NCBI GenBank assembly: GCA_002773395.1
Contig: PFBI01000006.1
Location: 156,657-220,656 of the forward strand
Direction of reading: 5' to 3'
DNA from: Candidatus Kaiserbacteria bacterium CG10_big_fil_rev_8_21_14_0_10_47_16
Lineage (GTDB): Bacteria; Patescibacteriota; Minisyncoccia; Phycocordibacterales; UBA918
DNA: 64,000 bases
Positions 1 to 56,338 of the stretch are shown here, piece after piece (position 1 is the stretch's first letter; each line of letters begins with the position of its first letter). The position numbers were made by a program, and so were the translations under genes. The notes under the pieces are model-generated. The model was not told the DNA's origin, made no database searches, and saw only the letters and a list, made by a program, of their open reading frames with translations.

Positions 1-524
1 TTACGAATTTTATGTGCATCCCATGCATCTTGGAGCGTTGTGAAAGAGGTCGGGTTTGCTGACTTCAACTTTTCGCCAATTGTTGCGCCAGGGAACCCAG
101 CGCCTTCAAGTGTATCCTCAAGAAGAATGTCCGCTTCAATAATTGCAAGTCGCCAATCGTTTGGATTCTGTGATGCAACATGCGTCATCACTTCTTGCCA
201 TCGCACATTCGTACCTGTCTTCGAACCACCTCCATGAAGTTCATCCCATCGTTTTTCTCCTTCCTCAATTTGCGCATCCAAAATTTCACCAAGTTGGCCG
301 TATCGAATCTTTGCATAAATAAATCCTGCGAAAAAGAGGAGCGCGAGTGCAATAGCAATAATCGAATAGACTTGCCAAAAGTGACCAAGGAAAGTCAAAA
401 ATGACGAAAATCCGCCGGCGCTTGAAAGCGTATCGCCTCGGAAAAACGCAGTGACGCGCTCTACAATACCCACGATATCGAGTCCGCGGGTTTGATAGAT
501 GATGTCGTTGTCATCAGGAACCAT
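1..524 (-). CDS. hypothetical membrane-anchored protein, 5'-partial in window (runs off the left edge)
   Basis: Hand translation of the minus strand gives an open frame from an ATG at 522-524 (20 nt after the gatA stop, same frame) to position 1 with no stop: MVPDDNDIIYQTRGLDIVGIVERV...VYSIIAIALALLFFAGFIYA (one TM)...LQDAWDAHKIR. It is absent from the ORF track because it has no stop in the window. Confidence 0.45.
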   Translation of the reverse strand, partial: MVPDDNDIIYQTRGLDIVGIVERVTAFFRGDTLSSAGGFSSFLTFLGHFWQVYSIIAIALALLFFAGFIYAKIRYGQLGEILDAQIEEGEKRWDELHGGGSKTGTNVRWQEVMTHVASQNPNDWRLAIIEADILLEDTLEGAGFPGATIGEKLKSANPTSFTTLQDAWDAHKIR

Positions 525-542
525 ACTGGATAAGTTGAGGAC

Positions 543-1952
543 CTACAGCTCTCCATTCATCTTTTTACCAAAATCGAAGAGACGCGCGTCGCCCGCGTGC
601 GGTCCAATACATTGTACCCCAACCGGTAGGAGAACACCGTCACGATCTACTGTGCCTGCGGGGATAGAGAGCGCAGGAACACCAGTCAGGTTTGCGGGTA
701 CCGTGAAGATGTCTGCAAGGTACATCGAGAGTGGGTCACTCTTCTCGCCAATTTTAAATGCAGGTACCGGAGACGTTGGTGTGAGAAGAATATCGACATC
801 TTTAAATACCGCATCGAGTTCATCACGCATCATCTCACGCACTTGTTCTGCTTTGCCATAGTATGAATCGTAGTATCCCGCGGAGAGCACGTACGTACCG
901 AGCAAGATGCGACGCTTCACTTCTTCACCAAACCCTTGCGCACGCGTTAGCATGTAGTCATCGAGTAAATCAGCGCCGTCAACATGGAGGCCATACCGCA
1001 CGCCGTCAAATCGTCCGAGGTTCGAAGATACTTCTGCTGGCATCACGATGTAATACGCAGCAAGCCCTTTTTCCATAAGTGGAAGTGTTACATCAACAAT
1101 TTCATGACCAGCTTCTTTTAGTTTTGTGAGCGTTGATTCAAATACCGCAGAGACATCCGCATCAATACCTGTACCGAGAAAGTCTCGGGGTACTCCAATA
1201 CGGTACGTATCCTTAAGCGGTACAAGTGGGTATGTGTCAGCGTTAATTGTCGTTGCATCGAGAGGATCTTTCCCGGAAATGATGTTGTGAATTATTTCAG
1301 CATCAGCGACTGTGTTTGTGAGCGGACCTGCTTGATCGAGTGATGAGCCCATCGCGATAAGGCCCGAACGCGAGACACTTCCGTACGTCGGCTTATACCC
1401 CACAACACCGCAGAAGCTTGCCGGCTGTCGCACCGAACCACCTGTGTCAGTACCGAGCGCAGCGACCGCAGCACCCATCGCAACAGCAGCTGCCGATCCT
1501 CCTGATGATCCGCCGGGTACTCGAGATTCATCGACAGGATTTCGGGTAATACCAAACGCAGAACTCTCTGTTGAAGAACCCATGGCGAACTCATCCATAT
1601 TGGTAGCTCCTACAAAGAGTGCGCCTGCTTCCTTTAGTTTCGTAATAACAGTTGCATCGTATGTCGCGACATAATGTTCAAGCATCTTTGATGACGCAGT
1701 TGCTCGCTTCCCTTCAATTAAAATATTTGTCTTAATCGCAATCGGCATACCAAGGAGGGCTGGCGCATTTTCACCTTCTGTCTTGTAGCGCGCAGTCGCT
1801 TCTTCCGCAGACGCCATTGCATCGTCAAACACATCGACGAATGCGTTGATCGTTCCGTCACGTTCATCAATAACTTTTTGTATATCAGTAAGAGCGTCTA
1901 CTGGTGTGTAGCTCCCCTCAACAAATTTCTTTCGTAATTCTGAAATCGTCAT
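543..1952 (-). CDS. gatA: Glu-tRNA(Gln)/Asp-tRNA(Asn) amidotransferase subunit A (amidase signature family)
   Basis: 469 aa. Amidase-signature G/S-rich block GGSSGGSAAAVA...GTDTGGSVRQPA; its length and its position just downstream of gatC are typical. Confidence 0.9.
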   Translation of the reverse strand: MTISELRKKFVEGSYTPVDALTDIQKVIDERDGTINAFVDVFDDAMASAEEATARYKTEGENAPALLGMPIAIKTNILIEGKRATASSKMLEHYVATYDATVITKLKEAGALFVGATNMDEFAMGSSTESSAFGITRNPVDESRVPGGSSGGSAAAVAMGAAVAALGTDTGGSVRQPASFCGVVGYKPTYGSVSRSGLIAMGSSLDQAGPLTNTVADAEIIHNIISGKDPLDATTINADTYPLVPLKDTYRIGVPRDFLGTGIDADVSAVFESTLTKLKEAGHEIVDVTLPLMEKGLAAYYIVMPAEVSSNLGRFDGVRYGLHVDGADLLDDYMLTRAQGFGEEVKRRILLGTYVLSAGYYDSYYGKAEQVREMMRDELDAVFKDVDILLTPTSPVPAFKIGEKSDPLSMYLADIFTVPANLTGVPALSIPAGTVDRDGVLLPVGVQCIGPHAGDARLFDFGKKMNGEL

Positions 1953-2273: not shown

Positions 2274-5551
<3,278 letters not shown>

Positions 5552-5651: not shown

Positions 5652-7151
5652 ATGGCAAAGAAAGCAACCCCACAACCGCATATTACGAAGCGCCCACCCG
5701 TAGTAGTTATCATGGGACACATCGATCACGGCAAATCGACGCTCCTTGACTACATCCGTAAATCAAACGTCGTAGCAGGCGAAGCAGGCGGTATTACCCA
5801 ACACCTCTCAGCCTACGTTGTAGAGCACACCCCAAAGGAAGGTGAGCCTGAAACCATCACATTCCTCGATACCCCAGGACATGAAGCATTCCAAAAGATG
5901 CGTCTTCGTGGTGCCGACGTCGCCGATATCGCAATTCTCATTGTATCTGCAGAAGATGGCGTAAAGCCGCAAACACTCGAAGCCCTCGAGAGTATCAAGC
6001 AAGCAGAGATTCCATATGTCGTTGCAATAAATAAAATCGACCTCCCGAATGCAAACCTCGTCCGTACCCAATCATCACTCATCGAAAACGAAATCTATAT
6101 TGAAGGTATGGGTGGTGATATCCCATGGGTTGCCCTCTCTGCAAAGAGCGGTGAAGGCGTAGACGAGCTTCTCGATCTTGTGCTCCTCTCTGCAGAACTC
6201 GCAGAGCTGAAGGGCGATACCAATGCACCTGCAGAAGGTACCGTCATTGAAGGGCACCTCGATACCAAGCGCGGAACAACTGCAACACTCATCATTAAAA
6301 ACGGAACATTGAAGTCTGGTTCGTTTGCAGTTTCTGGAAAAACATTTGCACCAGTGCGCATCATGGAGAATTTCCTCGGAAAGACCATCAAAGAAGCAAG
6401 CCTCTCAGAACCAATCGGAATCGTAGGATGGAACGAAGTCCCTGAAGTGGGTGCATCTTTTTATACTGTAGGATCAAAGAAGGAAGCTGAAGTCGTTATT
6501 GCGGAAGCGTTGCTTAAAGAAACGATCCCTACACCAACACGATCAAGCCTTCCTACTATCCCACTCCTCATCAAGGCAGACGTGCTCGGTACACTCGACG
6601 CTATTGAACACGAACTCGATAAATTTACATCGGACCGAATCGCGGTACGTATTATTGATTCCGGTGTCGGTGACGTCACAGCGAGCGACGTACAAAACGT
6701 AAGCGCGACGAAGGATGCCATTATTGTTGGATTCAACGTAAAGATTGAACGCGCTGCGCAAGATCTTGCAGAACGACTCGGTGTTGAGATTGATACATTT
6801 GATATTATTTACGAACTTTCTGAGTGGCTCAACACCGCACTCAAGAATCGAACTCCAAAGCAAGAAGAGGAGCAAGTGACCGGACGCGCAAAAATCCTCA
6901 AGCACTTCAGTAGTCAAAAGAATGCTCACGTACTCGGTGGTCGTGCTGAAGAAGGAAGTCTCTCACGTGGACAACATGTACGTATACTCCGTCGTGATCT
7001 AGAAATTGGTCGAGGTGTCCTCAAGAACCTCCAGCAGCAGAAGTCTGACGTCCCTAAGGTGGAGACAGGAGAGTTTGGTATGCAGCTTGATTCACGAACT
7101 GAAGTTGCTGCCGGTGATTATATCGAGGCCTATACGACGGTTGTAACCTAA
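5652..7151 (+). CDS. infB: translation initiation factor IF-2 (short form lacking the N-terminal domains)
   Basis: G-domain motifs GHIDHGKST, DTPGH, NKID, followed by the beta-barrel and C-terminal domains. Only 499 aa. Confidence 0.85.
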   Translation: MAKKATPQPHITKRPPVVVIMGHIDHGKSTLLDYIRKSNVVAGEAGGITQHLSAYVVEHTPKEGEPETITFLDTPGHEAFQKMRLRGADVADIAILIVSAEDGVKPQTLEALESIKQAEIPYVVAINKIDLPNANLVRTQSSLIENEIYIEGMGGDIPWVALSAKSGEGVDELLDLVLLSAELAELKGDTNAPAEGTVIEGHLDTKRGTTATLIIKNGTLKSGSFAVSGKTFAPVRIMENFLGKTIKEASLSEPIGIVGWNEVPEVGASFYTVGSKKEAEVVIAEALLKETIPTPTRSSLPTIPLLIKADVLGTLDAIEHELDKFTSDRIAVRIIDSGVGDVTASDVQNVSATKDAIIVGFNVKIERAAQDLAERLGVEIDTFDIIYELSEWLNTALKNRTPKQEEEQVTGRAKILKHFSSQKNAHVLGGRAEEGSLSRGQHVRILRRDLEIGRGVLKNLQQQKSDVPKVETGEFGMQLDSRTEVAAGDYIEAYTTVVT

Positions 7152-7159
7152 ACATTTTC

Positions 7160-7504
7160 ATGCCCGATTTTGACCGACATGATCGTATCAATTCAATTCT
7201 CGCAACGCTTGCTGCTGAGTTTATTCGAGTTGAGGCAAACAGTAATCCTCTCATTACGGTAACCCACGTAACTATTTCTCCTGACTATCGCCGCACCACT
7301 ATTGGCTTCACGACCATTCCTGAAGATAAACAGGACGACGCCCTGATTTTTCTAAAGCGAAATGCATCTGAGTTCAGAAATTATATTAAAAAACACGCTC
7401 ACCTGAAGTTTATCCCCCACATTGAATTTGCGATTGATTACGGAGAACGCCACCGCCAACACATAGACGATGTGGTGAGAGATATTGAAGAGGGTAAAAA
7501 ATAA
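7160..7504 (+). CDS. rbfA: ribosome-binding factor A
   Basis: 114 aa immediately after infB (conserved infB-rbfA order); KH-like RbfA pattern (RINSILATLAAEF...VTHVTISPD). Confidence 0.8.
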   Translation: MPDFDRHDRINSILATLAAEFIRVEANSNPLITVTHVTISPDYRRTTIGFTTIPEDKQDDALIFLKRNASEFRNYIKKHAHLKFIPHIEFAIDYGERHRQHIDDVVRDIEEGKK

Positions 7505-7549
7505 TAATACAATCCTACGCCACAGGCGTAGGATTGTATTATTATTTTT
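7503..7549 (+). terminator. rho-independent terminator after rbfA
   Basis: Perfect long stem aatacaatcctacgcc/ggcgtaggattgtatt followed by a T-run. Confidence 0.7.
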
Positions 7550-7741
7550 GTGCGCGGGAGAGGACTTGATTCTTACAGAATCTGTTCAGGCTGCACCACA
7601 AGAGTACTTTGATTTTCTAAAACGCAAGCGTTAAGAAAATCTGGTCGTATGATATTTTTCATACCTCAAAATATCGACAACCTTTTCAAGTCCTCTCCAT
7701 ACAAAGAAACACCAGAGAGACTCTGGTGTTTCTTTACTTTG

Positions 7742-7823
7742 TGCGCGGGAGAGGACTTGAACCTCCACGGATTACTCCACCAGTTCCTAAGACTGGCGCG
7801 GCTACCAATTACGCCACCCGCGC
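7742..7823 (-). tRNA. tRNA-Leu (anticodon TAG), type II with long variable arm
   Basis: Manual cloverleaf on the reverse complement: acceptor GCGCGGG/CCCGCGC, anticodon loop CTTAGGA, long variable arm, T-loop TTCAAGT. Confidence 0.8.
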
Positions 7824-8009
7824 ATATTTGTGACCGGTGCAGAATATCATGATATGCGAGTATCGTCACGGGTTTTGTGTATGTCATCACGAGTCACTAA
7901 GTCGCTACGCTCATAAGTGCTGGCGATCCCGCCTCGTCTGTGGCAAAGCCGCATGACTCCGGCTCGGACAAGCTAAAATCCTGACGCAGGTCAGGATTTT
8001 AAACGCTTG

Positions 8010-8082
8010 TCCGCCCACTAGGACTCGAACCTAGGACCGTCTCGTTAAGAGCGAGCTGCTCTACCAACTGAGCTATGGGCGG
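8010..8082 (-). tRNA. tRNA-Lys (anticodon CTT)
   Basis: Reverse complement folds as CCGCCCA-TA-GCTC AGTTGGTA GAGC-A-GCTCG CTCTTAA CGAGA...CTAGG TTCGAGT CCTAG TGGGCGG A. Confidence 0.8.
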
Positions 8083-8221
8083 GACTGTACCATTGTGACT
8101 GCACTGTGCAGTCTGAGGAGTGCTCTTAATGTTAAGAGCGGTAGATGAGTCTAGTAGACTCATCTACCTCCACCACCTCCGCTATGGGCGGATGTAGGTC
8201 AGAGTGTACTAAATTACACCA

Positions 8222-8397: not shown

Positions 8398-8469
8398 GGC
8401 CAGGTGGCGAAGTGGTAACGCTTCGGTTTGCAAAACCGACATGCACGGGTTCGAACCCCGTCCTGGCCT
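8398..8469 (+). tRNA. tRNA-Cys (anticodon GCA)
   Basis: GGCCAGG-TG-GCG AAGTGGTAA CGC-T-TCGGT TTGCAAA ACCGA...ACGGG TTCGAAC CCCGT CCTGGCC T. CCA is not encoded. Confidence 0.8.
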
Positions 8470-8535
8470 CAAACGAAACGGAGTGAAGTGCAGAGGTCAG
8501 GACAAAAGCGACAACAGTCGCTTTTGTTGAGGTTC

Positions 8536-8616
8536 GAACGGCGGAGCGATGTTTTGGCTATTTCTAATGCCAAAACCGCGAGCCGCGTCCAGCATTCTTA
8601 TGAACGTAGTGAATTA
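8536..8616 (+). ncRNA. conserved ~80-nt hairpin element downstream of tRNA-Cys (copy 1 of 2)
   Basis: cggagcgatgttttggctatttctaatgccaaaaccgcgagccg...cttatgaacgtagtgaattag. It is near-identical to 56216-56300. The stem gttttggc/gccaaaac becomes gtttcggc/gccgaaac in copy 2 (compensatory change). Confidence 0.4.
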
Positions 8617-8682
8617 GAAAAAGCGGGACGAACCCCGTCCTGGCCTCAAACGAAAAACTGCCAGTATACTGGCAGTTTTTTG

Positions 8683-9729
8683 TTATCTTTTTATTGAAAG
8701 CCGATTCTTTTTGAATTGCTCTAATTTCTTCTTATGATTGTTCTTAATCAAACGCTTTTTTACAACCTGTGGAAGTGCATCAAACGTCATACATGTGTAT
8801 GAACAATACCCTTTCTTCTTTTCGATACATGCGGAACATCCGATAAACAAGACGTGGCACGCCTGATTTTTGCAGTGGTGATGCGTATCACACTTCTCCT
8901 TCTTGCAAAGATGGCACGTTGCAATAATGTCATTCCCTATCCGTTCCCCAAGTCGCTCATCGAAAACAAAGTTTTTCCCGAGAAACTTATTTGACAATCC
9001 TTCCCGCTGTACTTGGTGCGCGTAGTCGATGATTCCGCCGCGGAGGTGCCGTACGTTTTCAAATCCATTATGCTTCAGCCACGCACTTGCCTTCTCGCAT
9101 CGTATCCCGCCAGTACAATACAGTGCAATCTTTTTATTTTTATGAATCCTGAGTAACTCTGGAGCAATACTGAGTTCCTCACGGAAAGTGTCCACATCAG
9201 GAGTAATCGCATTCTCAAAATGTCCGATCTCGCTTTCGTACGCATTACGCATATCGACAACGACTGCATCAGGATCTTCAATATACGCATTCATCTCACG
9301 AGCGGTGAGATAGTCGCCCGTGTTTGTCACATCAAACGAACGGTCGTCGAGTCCATCAGCCACGATCTTATTTCGGACTTTGATAGTGAGTTTATAGAAC
9401 GAAATAATATCCGCCTCTTCCACTGCAATCTTATAGGGCATGCCGCGGAGTTCTGGGCGGGATTGTACAAACGCATCAAACTGATCCCAGTGCTCAGTTG
9501 GTACGTTCATTTGGGCGTTAATGCCTTCGTGCGCCACATAAATACGCCCCAAGCAGCCAAGTGCCTCGAACCGCTCATAAAGCTCGTCTCGAAACGCTAC
9601 AGGGTCTGCAATGTGTACATACCGGTAAAACGAGAGTGTGGTACGAGAAATAGCTTCACGAATGGCTCGCTCTTTTCGTTCTTTCCGAGAAAGAAACCGT
9701 TGTGGGTTATGATCTATTTTTATATCCAT
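8683..9729 (-). CDS. trhO: rhodanese-domain tRNA uridine(34) hydroxylase (YceA/UPF0176 family)
   Basis: Rhodanese active-site Cys in CTGGIRCEKASAWL plus a C-terminal Cys-rich tail. I place the start at MDIKIDHNP (ATG 9727-9729) rather than the track's 9777. Confidence 0.7.
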   Translation of the reverse strand: MDIKIDHNPQRFLSRKERKERAIREAISRTTLSFYRYVHIADPVAFRDELYERFEALGCLGRIYVAHEGINAQMNVPTEHWDQFDAFVQSRPELRGMPYKIAVEEADIISFYKLTIKVRNKIVADGLDDRSFDVTNTGDYLTAREMNAYIEDPDAVVVDMRNAYESEIGHFENAITPDVDTFREELSIAPELLRIHKNKKIALYCTGGIRCEKASAWLKHNGFENVRHLRGGIIDYAHQVQREGLSNKFLGKNFVFDERLGERIGNDIIATCHLCKKEKCDTHHHCKNQACHVLFIGCSACIEKKKGYCSYTCMTFDALPQVVKKRLIKNNHKKKLEQFKKNRLSIKR

Positions 9730-30951: not shown

Positions 30952-31022
30952 GGAATAATCTCCTTCTTTTCCAATGTTTTTATAGCATATTTGGATAGTT
31001 TGTCAATATACGGTGCTTGGGG

Positions 31023-31367
31023 CCGGGCTCGGTCACGAATCACTAAGTATATTTTTGCTACGCTAAAATATACTTAGTGTTCTCGACCCGTGAAAAGCAA
31101 TTCAATATTGCTTTTCACCACGCCTCCCTCGTCCACAGGACGCGGCGCTCCGGCTTTCGAGCCGAGGCTCGGCGTCTAACTCTAGTTCACTACGTTCACA
31201 AGAGTTACCTGCCCGAGCATTTGAATTCTTGCATTAGAAATAGCAAAAATATACAAATGCTTTTCGAGCCCGACCGTAGGACGCGCCTGCGTCCTACTCC
31301 CCAAGCACACATACACAAAAACCGCCCTGAGGCGGTTTTTGTGTATGTGTGCTTGGGGCCGGGCTCG
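31023..31367. repeat. ~307-bp insert next to tRNA-Phe, flanked by an exact 19-nt direct repeat of the tRNA 3' end (gtgcttggggccgggctcg at 31023-31041 and 31349-31367)
   Basis: The direct repeat is visible in the sequence. The interior is hairpin-dense and includes a 28-bp perfect palindrome at 31299-31358 that incorporates the tRNA acceptor end. Confidence 0.5.
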
Positions 31368-31422
31368 AACCGGCGACCCCTTCCTCTTCAGGGAAATGCT
31401 CTACCAACTGAGCTACCCAAGC
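31350..31422 (-). tRNA. tRNA-Phe (anticodon GAA)
   Basis: Reverse complement: GCTTGGG-TA-GCTC AGTTGGTA GAGC-A-TTTCC CTGAAGA GGAAG-GGGTC-GCCGG TTCGAGC CCGGC CCCAAGC A. Confidence 0.8.
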
Positions 31423-56099: not shown

Positions 56100-56170
56100 G
56101 CGGCCATGGTTAAGTGGTATAACGAGTCCTTGCCAAGGATTAGTCGGGAGTTCGATTCTCCCTGGCCGCA
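56100..56170 (+). tRNA. tRNA-Gly (anticodon GCC)
   Basis: GCGGCCA...AGTCC TTGCCAA GGATT...GGGAG TTCGATT CTCCC TGGCCGC A. Promoter TTGCAT-N17-TATAAT about 30 nt upstream. Confidence 0.8.
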
Positions 56171-56215
56171 CAAACGCGTTAAAAAGACCTCCCCTGCGGG
56201 AGGTCTTTAGCGTTT

Positions 56216-56300
56216 GTGAGCCGGAGCGATGTTTCGGCTATTCCTAATGCCGAAACCGCGAGGCCGGGGAGGAAGTGCTTATGAGCGTAAGCGAATTAGC
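56216..56300 (+). ncRNA. conserved ~80-nt hairpin element downstream of tRNA-Gly (copy 2 of 2)
   Basis: ccggagcgatgtttcggctattcctaatgccgaaaccgcgaggccg...cttatgagcgtaagcgaattag; preceded by a long terminator hairpin (56176-56214). Confidence 0.4.
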
Positions 56301-56338
56301 AACTTGACCCCAATATAGAAAACGTGTGACCCATCCTT

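Follow-up and report, generated by a model that had tools for sequence, protein, structure and literature searches.

Hairpin-rich, gene-less units behind the tRNA genes of a Candidatus Kaiserbacteria genome and their possible integration at tRNA T-loops

Why should the spacer between two transfer RNA (tRNA) genes contain, side by side, two short blocks that lie far apart behind a third tRNA gene of the same contig? The question is raised by a 64,000-nt (64 kb) stretch of Candidatus Kaiserbacteria bacterium CG10_big_fil_rev_8_21_14_0_10_47_16 (contig PFBI01000006.1), here called the window; window positions are throughout those of this whole stretch. It contains six tRNA genes, and its gene content is of the housekeeping type (gyrA/gyrB, dnaG, rpoD, ATP synthase, clpB, leuS, a short IF-2 and pilins of the type IV secretion system type). 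A first-pass annotation had taken the tRNA-Lys/tRNA-Leu(tag) spacer for a solo junction or an internally deleted copy of an insert found behind tRNA-Phe, and had proposed that such inserts form a repeat family with defined ends. We conclude, with moderate confidence, that the flagged segment represents the 3'-terminal part of one member of a family of small, gene-less, hairpin-rich cassettes located behind tRNA genes. With a similar degree of confidence we propose that these cassettes are non-autonomous and integrate at tRNA T-loops, bringing with them a replacement 3' end of the tRNA gene.

Block 1, CGGGTTTTGTGTATGT (7869-7884), matches CGGTTTTTGTGTATGT (31333-31348) at 15 of 16 positions, with a single mismatch, and its only other match in the window at up to two mismatches is the palindromic partner of the latter at 31309-31324. 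The expectation from shuffled sequences is 0.06 matches per window; the 16-mer by itself is modestly significant. Block 2, CACGAGTCACTAAGT (7888-7902), matches CACGAATCACTAAGT at 14 of 15 positions, the difference being one R position; 0.22 matches at up to two mismatches are expected from shuffling, and both real matches are exact to the pattern. Its partner lies at 31034-31048, about 10 nt lower than first annotated (31044 onward), and GCTACGCT of the tRNA-Phe locus is found at 31057-31064. Both matches are thus real and exceed the shuffled-sequence background, and the blocks are indeed adjacent in the Lys/Leu spacer (3 nt apart) and distant from one another at tRNA-Phe (268 nt).

Comparison of the window with itself revealed direct repeats of tRNA 3' ends as well as modules common to several inserts. 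Perfect direct repeats surround the inserts at Phe (19 nt, 336 bp apart), Cys (27 nt, 177 bp) and Leu(tag) (23 nt, 191 bp), and the Cys, Gly, Lys and Phe inserts have modules in common, each in the orientation of its tRNA. The cores of these inserts fall into at least two types, A and B. For type A, 47 cores were aligned, a structure was drawn by hand and then tested, and a covariance model was built from the alignment. Over the whole 64 kb this model identified five type A units, all behind tRNAs, and no other matches:

56206-56323, plus strand: Gly unit, 88 bits
8526-8641, plus strand: Cys unit, 83.9 bits
7873-7977, minus strand: Lys unit, 72.5 bits (E 2e-18), including block 2 and most of block 1
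31159-31275, minus strand: Phe unit 1, 52.2 bits, a copy absent from the seed alignment
31026-31137, minus strand: Phe unit 2, a weak match of 14.2 bits (E 0.07)

Together with a type B unit at Leu(tag), units are present behind five of the six tRNA genes, the Phe locus having two of type A in tandem. The proposal of a repeat family with defined ends was therefore upheld, with these five type A units in the window, 98 elsewhere, and boundaries at the tRNA T-loop.

Read in the orientation of the tRNA, which is always that of full units, the canonical unit begins with an intact tRNA, whose short trailer contains a hairpin or an intrinsic terminator; a segment A', a structured core and a segment A2 follow. 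The unit is about 130-190 bp in size and has no open reading frame (ORF). A' repeats the last ~21 nt of the tRNA as their reverse complement and is usually split by a small hairpin near the boundary of acceptor and T-stem; it is followed by GAA, the core, GACC and A2. The latter is a direct copy of the tRNA from C56 of the T-loop to the 3' end, often continuing into the trailer. Unit boundaries read GACC|CGAnnCC or AAGA|TTCAAG, and A' is specific, its mean exact match being 10.9 nt to its own tRNA and 4.6 nt to non-cognate tails.

The type A core has two arms. Arm 1 opens with a covarying stem, continues through N-GA and a short stem to a variable hairpin, and leads back via GA to the second strand of the opening stem, with the two GA dinucleotides opposed as tandem G.A. 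Arm 2 is a long hairpin with the tip CTTATGAGCGTAGCGAATTAG, and the block at 7888-7911, formerly the "left end" of the insert, is the reverse complement of this tip and of the 3' strand of the arm. Across the 47 cores 85.9% of the paired cells can pair, versus 67.6% in shuffles, none of 500 of which reached the observed value, and 30-40% in controls with slid partners. The C-stem is 100% paired, with GC, CG, AU and UA types, and the two-bp tip stem covaries as well (tip pair 90-97 is GC in 30 cores, AU in 14 and GU in 3). The helix between the A' tail and A2 has changes on both sides in 8/8 pairs. G-T wobbles lie on the tRNA-sense strand, and predicted folds are much more stable than those of shuffles (z = -5.3 as RNA, z = -4.8 as DNA). 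The hairpin tips follow the pattern GC-GNA-GC (GCGTAGC, GCGAAGC, GCGCAGC), i.e. GNA triloops closed by C:G with flanking tandem G.A. Such tips are typical of very stable DNA mini-hairpins and not of RNA tetraloops.

Several other readings of these structures were tried and rejected. The tip CUUAUGA-GC-GUA-GC-GAA resembles a hammerhead core, but by eye it lacks the invariant G5 and A15.1, and a K-turn at the junction would have a bulge of 1 nt, not 3 (also by eye). The tip as a mini-ORF (ATG AGC GTA GCG AAT TAG) is contradicted by a covariation from G:C to A:T that alters the peptide and by a frameshifted Gly copy; a Shine-Dalgarno-like GGAGG occurs in one subclass only. Finally, a primer-binding site would complement the 3' end of the mature tRNA, whereas A' complements the trailer of the gene and not CCA.

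The two loci compared in the first-pass annotation contain the following features:

8009-8082, minus strand: tRNA-Lys(ctt)
7966-8009, minus strand: hairpin after tRNA-Lys, with a flanking inverted repeat GGACAAGC ... GCTTGTCC reaching into the last tRNA bases
7887-7965, minus strand: complete type A core (79 nt) after tRNA-Lys, in which 7888-7911 is the 3' arm of the terminal hairpin
7897-7917, minus strand: conserved hairpin tip CTTATGAGCGTAGCGACTTAG of the Lys unit
7869-7884, minus strand: trailer-like block ACATACACAAAACCCG directly 3' of the Lys unit, 15/16 to 31333-31348
31349-31422, minus strand: tRNA-Phe(gaa), the last 19 nt of which (31349-31367) are direct-repeat copy 1
31299-31358: perfect palindrome with 28-nt arms, made of the tRNA-Phe 3' end, trailer, terminator-like stem and the reverse complement
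31263-31308, minus strand: Phe A', the reverse complement of the tRNA-Phe 3' end, GTGCTTGGGG ... GTCGGGCTCGAA, its halves split by a 24-nt hairpin
31172-31262, minus strand: type A core of Phe unit 1 (tRNA-proximal), with the tip CTTGTGAACGTAGTGAACTAG at 31182-31202
31156-31171, minus strand: junction between the Phe units, with a truncated tRNA 3'-end copy CGAGCC and a short A' remnant TCGGCTCGAA
31032-31155, minus strand: type A core of Phe unit 2 (distal, diverged, with extra hairpins), with CACGAATCACTAAGT...GCTACGCT at 31034-31064
31013-31031, minus strand: direct-repeat copy 2 of the tRNA-Phe 3' end, 19/19 identical

The Phe A' matches its cognate tRNA over 21 nt. The 336-bp Phe insert is a dimer of units and not a single element with a hairpin-rich interior, so that its supposed ends have to be renamed. 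The "left end" does recur in the Lys/Leu spacer, as the 3' arm and tip of the conserved terminal hairpin, and at tRNA-Phe it belongs to the distal of the two tandem units. The "right end", 31333-31348, is likewise a true match; it is the 16 nt directly after tRNA-Phe, lies within the palindrome 31299-31358 and consists of the trailer and the 5' arm of this terminator-like structure. The Lys/Leu spacer is no solo junction or internally deleted copy either, as it contains the complete core preceded by its hairpin. Its order is hairpin, core, two bases and then ACATACACAAAACCCG, and the terminal hairpin adjoins trailer-type sequence because the Lys unit has no copy of the tRNA-Lys 3' end.

One part of the junction idea survives. 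The order of the blocks in the Lys spacer matches that expected if the ends of the Phe element were joined, in a circle or in tandem, except that the 19-nt tRNA-Phe segment is missing, and a past exchange between the Phe and Lys loci is possible. The Lys copy may equally be an old, complete unit that simply lacks a tRNA 3'-end copy before its trailer. Since the orthologous Lys unit of a relative (locus L111) also precedes a trailer of the ACAAATAT... type, a simple old insertion at the end of tRNA-Lys is at least as likely as a junction.

The remaining units of the window are laid out as follows:

8398-8470, plus strand: tRNA-Cys(gca); direct-repeat copy 1 is 8452-8478 (19 nt of tRNA and 8 nt of trailer)
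8493-8538, plus strand: Cys A', GAGGTCAGGAC ... TGAGGTTCGAA, with a hairpin between the halves; in predicted folds it pairs with 8629-8647
8539-8628, plus strand: Cys type A core; the same site is empty in the closest relative (L143)
8629-8655, plus strand: Cys direct-repeat copy 2 (27/27), followed by a terminator at 8649-8684
56171-56218, plus strand: hairpin with flanking inverted repeat directly behind tRNA-Gly(gcc) (56100-56171)
56219-56311, plus strand: Gly type A core, without direct repeat; its tip, with one extra base, lies at 56278-56299
7685-7735, minus strand: hairpin (7703-7735) and A' GGAGAGGACTTGAA (7685-7698) of the Leu(tag) unit
7570-7684, minus strand: Leu(tag) type B core, with the terminal hairpin GATTC-TGTAA-GAATC
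7547-7569, minus strand: Leu(tag) direct-repeat copy 2, 23 nt, identical to 7738-7760, followed by the operon terminator (7497-7549)

The Cys and Gly units have in common a 41-nt module that is 93% identical, with compensatory changes, but differ in arm 2, and the units are therefore mosaics. The Leu(tag) unit has the same frame as type A around a different core, ending in a hairpin YYC-TGTAA-GRR, and type B homologues were found in L019, L051, L143 and L113. In most genomes a canonical terminator stands between the tRNA and the unit. At tRNA-Cys and tRNA-Leu(tag) of the window, however, the operon terminator comes only after the unit, so that both units are probably transcribed.

How far does the family extend beyond this genome? 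The 20-nt tip pattern was found in at least 119 stretches of a collection of species-representative genomes, mostly of Patescibacteria; the further copies that the first-pass annotation had called for thus exist. Among the matches listed, the tip-bearing Patescibacteria include Paceibacteria/Parcubacteria, Saccharibacteria, Kaiserbacteria, Nomurabacteria, Yonathbacteria and Minisyncoccia, and the context of the tip in other Patescibacteria is the same as in the window. In the loci fetched from these stretches the covariance model identified 98 full-length type A units. Fifty-one lie at most 120 nt from a tRNA or transfer-messenger RNA (tmRNA) gene on the same strand and 19 more within 700 nt, giving jointly 70 units downstream of 17 tRNA/tmRNA types; 25 have no such gene upstream, and 3 are too close to the edge of the locus.

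Gain and loss could be followed in relatives that keep the arrangement RbfA - tRNA cluster - TrhO, with TrhO 75-81% identical. In L143 a terminator directly follows tRNA-Cys, without a unit, and a type B unit lies behind tRNA-Leu(taa). L140 has a type A unit of another subtype behind tRNA-Cys, and its gap between tRNA-Lys and tRNA-Leu(tag) is only 35 nt, without a unit. None of the four orthologous tRNAs of L142 has a unit, and in L111 type A units follow Cys, Lys and Leu(tag). A spacer-only alignment showed that the L143 sequence past A2 corresponds to the native trailer of the unit-less window and of L140. The inserted block therefore consists of a new terminator, A', the core and one copy of the tRNA 3' end. 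Orthologous tRNA-Phe loci, searched for via PepF in the metagenome collection, yielded distant, non-syntenic relatives only.

Comparison across genomes places the start of the direct repeat, in most units, between -18 and -21 as counted from the tRNA 3' end, and its second copy begins 10-12 nt past the conserved tip. The perfect repeat varies from 7 to 45+ nt; some repeats take in the trailer and part of the terminator, and in L021 and L017 the terminator itself is included. Units also accumulate in arrays: L019 contains three (A, B, A), each with a different terminator and with A copies that decay away from the tRNA, L114 two at tRNA-Phe, one of which has the A' hairpin of the window, and L113 type B units that recur perfectly in tandem every 135 nt. 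As far as sequence comparison can tell, the helix covariation, the T-loop start of the direct repeats, the tandem arrays and the patchy distribution among relatives are evidence for insertion rather than for a conserved gene.

On these grounds a mechanism can be sketched for integration at T-loops. The unit would move as a small circle, A - terminator - A' - core, whose junction, in circle or tandem, is expected to read ...CTTAGTGAYTCGTGAC - tRNA 3' copy - ACATACAC... This circle would recombine conservatively with a tRNA gene in A, the segment from the T-loop to the 3' end; the incoming 3' end with its own terminator would restore the tRNA, and the old 3' end, displaced downstream, would form the direct repeat. 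The recombining enzyme would be supplied in trans; no recombinase gene was seen in the units, in the window or recurrently nearby. As a single strand of DNA (ssDNA), the A - hairpin - A' palindrome and the core might fold into a branched hairpin mimicking the target duplex, with the conserved loops perhaps serving as protein-recognition or priming sites. Speculative hints toward such an ssDNA stage are the GC-GNA-GC tips, a 13-mer identical in pC194 and Bpu hairpins (see below), and the palindrome, which at the window Phe locus passes the discriminator base into the trailer with its 28-nt perfect arms and by its sequence would fit a DNA-level repeat better than a tRNA mimic.

A number of observations weigh against integration of this kind. 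No integrase or transposase Pfam matches were obtained among the called genes of the window, and clustering of 1,696 ORFs from 119 loci, judged by eye, gave no recombinase recurring near units; the top neighbour clusters look housekeeping (SDR, ABC-F, L19, RluD, UppS, RuvX, acylphosphatase, PilM, DnaK and TrxB). Neither a circular form nor an excision junction nor an allele left empty within a population was observed. Seventeen different tRNA cores are more than a tyrosine-type integrase would be expected to serve, and the re-matching of A and A' to a new tRNA is left unexplained. About one quarter of the units have no upstream tRNA, some of them following the terminators of protein genes, and the target may thus exceed the T-loop. 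The Gly and Lys units of the window have no direct repeats, the probable transcription of the Cys and Leu(tag) units would allow a role at the RNA level, and ssDNA and RNA folds are not separable from the sequence alone (PMC5737381).

The explanation that best withstands the data after integration at T-loops is that the units are functional structured noncoding RNAs on the tRNA transcripts, acting as processing or stability elements or as mimics of tRNA ends for RNase P, RNase Z or the CCA-adding enzyme, and that mobility is secondary. The A':A2 pairing would then provide a tRNA-like closing helix. The strong covariation and conserved loops would be expected of such RNAs, as would a fold on the tRNA-sense strand with G-U pairs that is predicted to be far more stable than shuffles (z = -5.3), the constant tRNA orientation of full units and the position of the window Cys and Leu(tag) units upstream of the operon terminator. 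We nevertheless consider this rather unlikely. Presence at orthologous tRNAs of close relatives is patchy, a canonical terminator separates tRNA and unit in most genomes, perfect direct repeats run into non-functional trailers and terminators, and there are tandem arrays and decayed copies. Furthermore, the pairing of A' beyond the discriminator base is unlike a tRNA end, GNA-triloop tips are generally those of stable DNA mini-hairpins, and no Rfam family matched even at E values up to 10.

It is less probable still that the units are scars of larger tRNA-integrated elements (prophages, islands, or integrative and conjugative elements (ICEs)), with attL/attR arms left after internal deletion as in cis-mobilizable elements (CIMEs). 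Insertion by an integrase classically leaves direct repeats of the tRNA 3' end that begin in the T-loop, and some arrays contain ORFs (a nucleotidyltransferase-like one in L051, small ones in L116 and L055). However, random deletion would not repeatedly yield one architecture of 130-190 bp, and the size is uniform, with one covarying core in about 100 copies across many genomes and tRNA types. No integrase was seen in the window or recurrently nearby, and neither 2.9 million viral contigs nor the plasmids searched contained a full unit.

Equally doubtful is a local origin of the A1-A'-A2 arrangement, in which replication would switch templates at two hairpins, those of the terminator and of the T-arm, and so produce an inverted triplication of the origin-dependent inverted-repeat amplification (ODIRA) type without mobile intermediate. 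This would account for an A' that is continuous with the complement of trailer and terminator, as in the 28-nt arms of the window Phe locus, and for terminators inside the direct repeat in several cases (L021, L017); palindromic T-loops such as TTCGAA could seed the switch back to the original template. It leaves unexplained the conserved core of ~90 nt common to loci, tRNA types and genomes, and the new, different terminators brought by units in L019 and L143, and would at most create the A/A' frame. The block matches could, lastly, be a chance likeness of AT-rich tRNA trailers, all of which begin with ACA(A/C)A in this genome, the 16-mer alone being expected at 0.06 per window, but chance is negligible because the two blocks are adjacent and fall in a covariance-model match of 72.5 bits (E 2e-18), and with the family in more than 100 loci this reading is refuted.

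If the units are integrative DNA, to which known system could they belong? Integrative elements that target tRNA genes, of which Williams in 2002 reportedly distinguished a T-loop sublocation class with tyrosine integrases, resemble the units in inserting into the 3' part of the tRNA, bringing a 3' end of their own, leaving the displaced end as a direct repeat from the T-loop and forming tandem arrays. The units differ from them in their size of 130-190 bp, the lack of an integrase or any other gene, a core common to at least 17 tRNA types, the presence of an inverted target copy, the covarying core and the location of some units behind protein genes. Islands in tRNA genes are marked by a direct repeat of the tRNA 3' end, with the crossover in the T-loop, anticodon loop or 3' end, and such a repeat, starting in the T-loop, is present in most units; an integrase gene within the element beside the tRNA is found neither in the ORF-less units nor among the called genes of the window.

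CIMEs are cis-mobilizable, att-flanked, gene-poor derivatives of ICEs that are mobilised in trans (ICEberg 2.0, PMC6323972). The units are like them in being non-autonomous, with att-like direct repeats at a tRNA gene and presumably a recombinase in trans, and they are indeed att-flanked segments without recombination and conjugation genes. CIMEs, however, are kilobases long and derived from a resident ICE, whereas the units have a conserved folded core, and no parent element was seen in the fetched loci, viral contigs or plasmids.

Integron cassettes with attC sites and the attP of CTX-phi, an integrative mobile element exploiting Xer (IMEX), also accumulate in tandem at one site and rely on an imperfect palindrome defined by structure. 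In L019 only, the newest unit is site-proximal, as in integrons, and in ssDNA the A - terminator - A' palindrome would imitate a duplex target as attC and CTX-phi do. Units differ in having no intI or attI, no R''/L''/L'/R' (GTTRRRY) boxes and mostly no cargo; intI is not among the called genes of the window and the unit boundaries are not GTTRRRY. The target of integrons and CTX-phi is attI or dif, that of the units the tRNA T-loop, and a role of ssDNA is only conjectured for the units. As to an attC-like fold, the units have covarying helices and a stable predicted DNA fold (z = -4.8), but the RNA fold is equally good (z = -5.3).

MITEs (miniature transposable elements with inverted repeats), REPINs and palindrome-associated transposable elements (PATEs) are likewise small, gene-less, hairpin-rich, multi-copy and intergenic, and depend on an enzyme in trans. 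In the units, by contrast, the terminal inverted repeats copy the local target and not the end of an insertion sequence (IS), the duplication is variable (7-45+ nt), and orientation and position relative to tRNA genes are strict. The constant IS-matching inverted repeats and fixed short target site duplication (TSD) of MITEs are lacking, as A' and A differ for each tRNA. IS200/IS605-type PATEs and REPINs have subterminal hairpins and a cognate Y1 transposase or RAYT gene, and insert without duplication 3' of a fixed tetra- or pentanucleotide; in the units a duplication is present, and the window contains no such gene. No cognate IS or RAYT gene was seen for the units.

The conserved tip leads to yet other systems. 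Its 13-mer TGAGCGTAGCGAA lies at 7900-7912 on the minus strand of the window, with one extra base in the Gly copy. The ssoA-type single-strand origins of rolling-circle plasmids have an RS_B site and a long hairpin, whose terminal loop bears the CS-6 motif (TAGCGt/a). The unit tip contains TAGCGA and equals the pC194 hairpin tip; neither a Rep gene nor a double-strand origin was found beside units. The 13-mer is the tip of a hairpin beside the double-strand (rolling-circle) origin and cat promoter of pC194 (PMC7072734), and the centre of the 36-bp consensus of the Bpu repeat of Cycas mitochondria (PMC8297867); it also occurs in cat-cassette primers of other papers. Nothing else in the Bpu elements or the pC194 hairpin is alike, stems, context and hosts being unrelated. 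In Alphaproteobacteria only the tip matched (model positions 72-96), inside a different palindromic repeat (L014, L026, L039, L040, L045, L049, L052, L099, L103, L106, L118, L121 and others), which has the tip TTATGAGCGTAGCGAATTAG with a covarying stem, flanks CCCCTCTCCC...GGGAGAGG and GGTGAGGGG palindromes. The sharing of the tip with this repeat, and of its 13-nt centre with a Staphylococcus plasmid and cycad mitochondria, needs an explanation of its own; convergence on a stable GC-GTA-GC mini-hairpin with G.A pairs, or a common recognition site, may be involved.

Searches of Rfam 15 with the window loci and 18 other loci gave only tRNAs and riboswitches unrelated to the units above the gathering thresholds, and at E values up to 10 only spurious microRNA/sRNA hairpin matches were added. 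The tip pattern had three matches, none of them a full unit, in the 2.9 million viral contigs. One of these (L135, 41-60) is the antisense of a phage tRNA-Met, its TTATGAG complementing the CAU anticodon loop CTCATAA, and is probably a coincidence. A blastn search of plasmids detected no unit. A published description of the family was not found in the literature searched, which covers few subscription journals.

The family thus fails a defining feature of each known system, be it the integrase, the attC boxes and intI, constant inverted repeats with a fixed TSD, or the cognate IS. We regard it as non-autonomous integrative DNA, with a real chance that it represents a new class. More tentatively, this might be an unrecognised class of gene-less, structure-defined DNA cassettes that spread as folded single strands, e.g. 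once taken up through the competence or type IV pilus machinery of Patescibacteria, with A - hairpin - A' re-forming the T-arm/acceptor duplex of the tRNA as a self-contained attachment site and the branched core recruiting a host-encoded enzyme. It would be a tRNA-targeted analogue of attC/CTX-phi recombination with no dedicated integrase locus.

Several individual loci deserve description. Directly upstream of tRNA-Lys the window contains a 109-nt insertion (8083-8191, minus strand), bounded at 8072-8082 and 8181-8191 by direct repeats in which 11 nt of the tRNA 5' end, CCGCCCATAGC, are duplicated. The insertion includes a stretch resembling a decayed D-arm, a hairpin and CGCTCTTAAC, identical to the anticodon-arm sequence of tRNA-Lys, and is not present in the orthologous spacers of L143 and L140. 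Contigs of three other assemblies of the same strain (L002, L003, L004) end in the tRNA/unit cluster, at 8082, 7762 and 7582. These ends may be assembly breaks induced by the repeats or population variation; their positions do not match the graph branch points expected of a simple unit-less allele.

Type A units behind the terminators of protein genes are found in L022 (~3000-3400, minus strand, at the end of an S9-like gene), L005 (4000-4170) and L032. Each has an inverted repeat of the last ~10 nt of the gene, and in L022 the gene end recurs downstream as a second, diverged copy, which suggests that the insertion logic extends to 3' ends other than those of tRNAs. In L096 (~520-900, minus strand) ARAGORN called a tmRNA on the same strand, 237 nt upstream of a type A unit, and in L086 (~3150-3460) a 3' end resembling a T-arm and acceptor precedes the unit, with no tRNA or tmRNA gene called. 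L110 (~940-1130, minus strand) and L050 have a 5' part like tRNA-Ala(tgc), then GGGGGTTCGAG, then a short A' and a type A core, with an A2 unlike the acceptor stem of that tRNA-Ala(tgc)-like part; this is apparently a tRNA pseudogene from deletion of the palindrome centre.

The array behind tRNA-Trp in L051 (3180-4560, minus strand) consists of a type B unit, an ORF of ~215 aa resembling nucleotidyltransferases, a repeat of tRNA end, terminator and A', a core of a third kind and a unit of type A, which shows that such arrays can house cargo genes. In L111 a palindromic repeat CATACGATATATCGTATG (5919-5945, 6354-6380, 6840-6880) flanks an ORF of ~130 aa between tRNA-Leu(taa) and tRNA-Lys and also substitutes for the tip in the tRNA-Leu(tag) type A unit. 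Hairpins that bear the conserved tip of the family but lack the rest of the unit stand alone, shortly upstream of genes starting on the opposite strand, in the Patescibacteria loci L006, L037, L122, L012 and L097. Full type A units also occur in metagenome-assembled genomes labelled 'Patiriisocius sp.' (L054, L075, L080, L083; L075 also has a SAM riboswitch) and 'Azotimanducaceae' (L035), i.e. Bacteroidota and Gammaproteobacteria; the family may cross phyla, or else these contigs have been binned or labelled wrongly.

Patescibacteria have tiny genomes that are generally regarded as poor in mobile DNA. In the 64-kb housekeeping region described here, small insertions of one family are found at five of the six tRNA genes. 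If these are mobile, they would offer a handle on the movement of DNA in organisms that cannot be cultured alone, point to a recombinase able to act on many tRNA T-loops, account for tRNA-fragment "pseudogenes" and for contig breaks at the tRNA clusters of these bacteria, and possibly serve as strain-level markers. If they act as RNA instead, they would constitute an uncatalogued, widespread class of structured RNAs.

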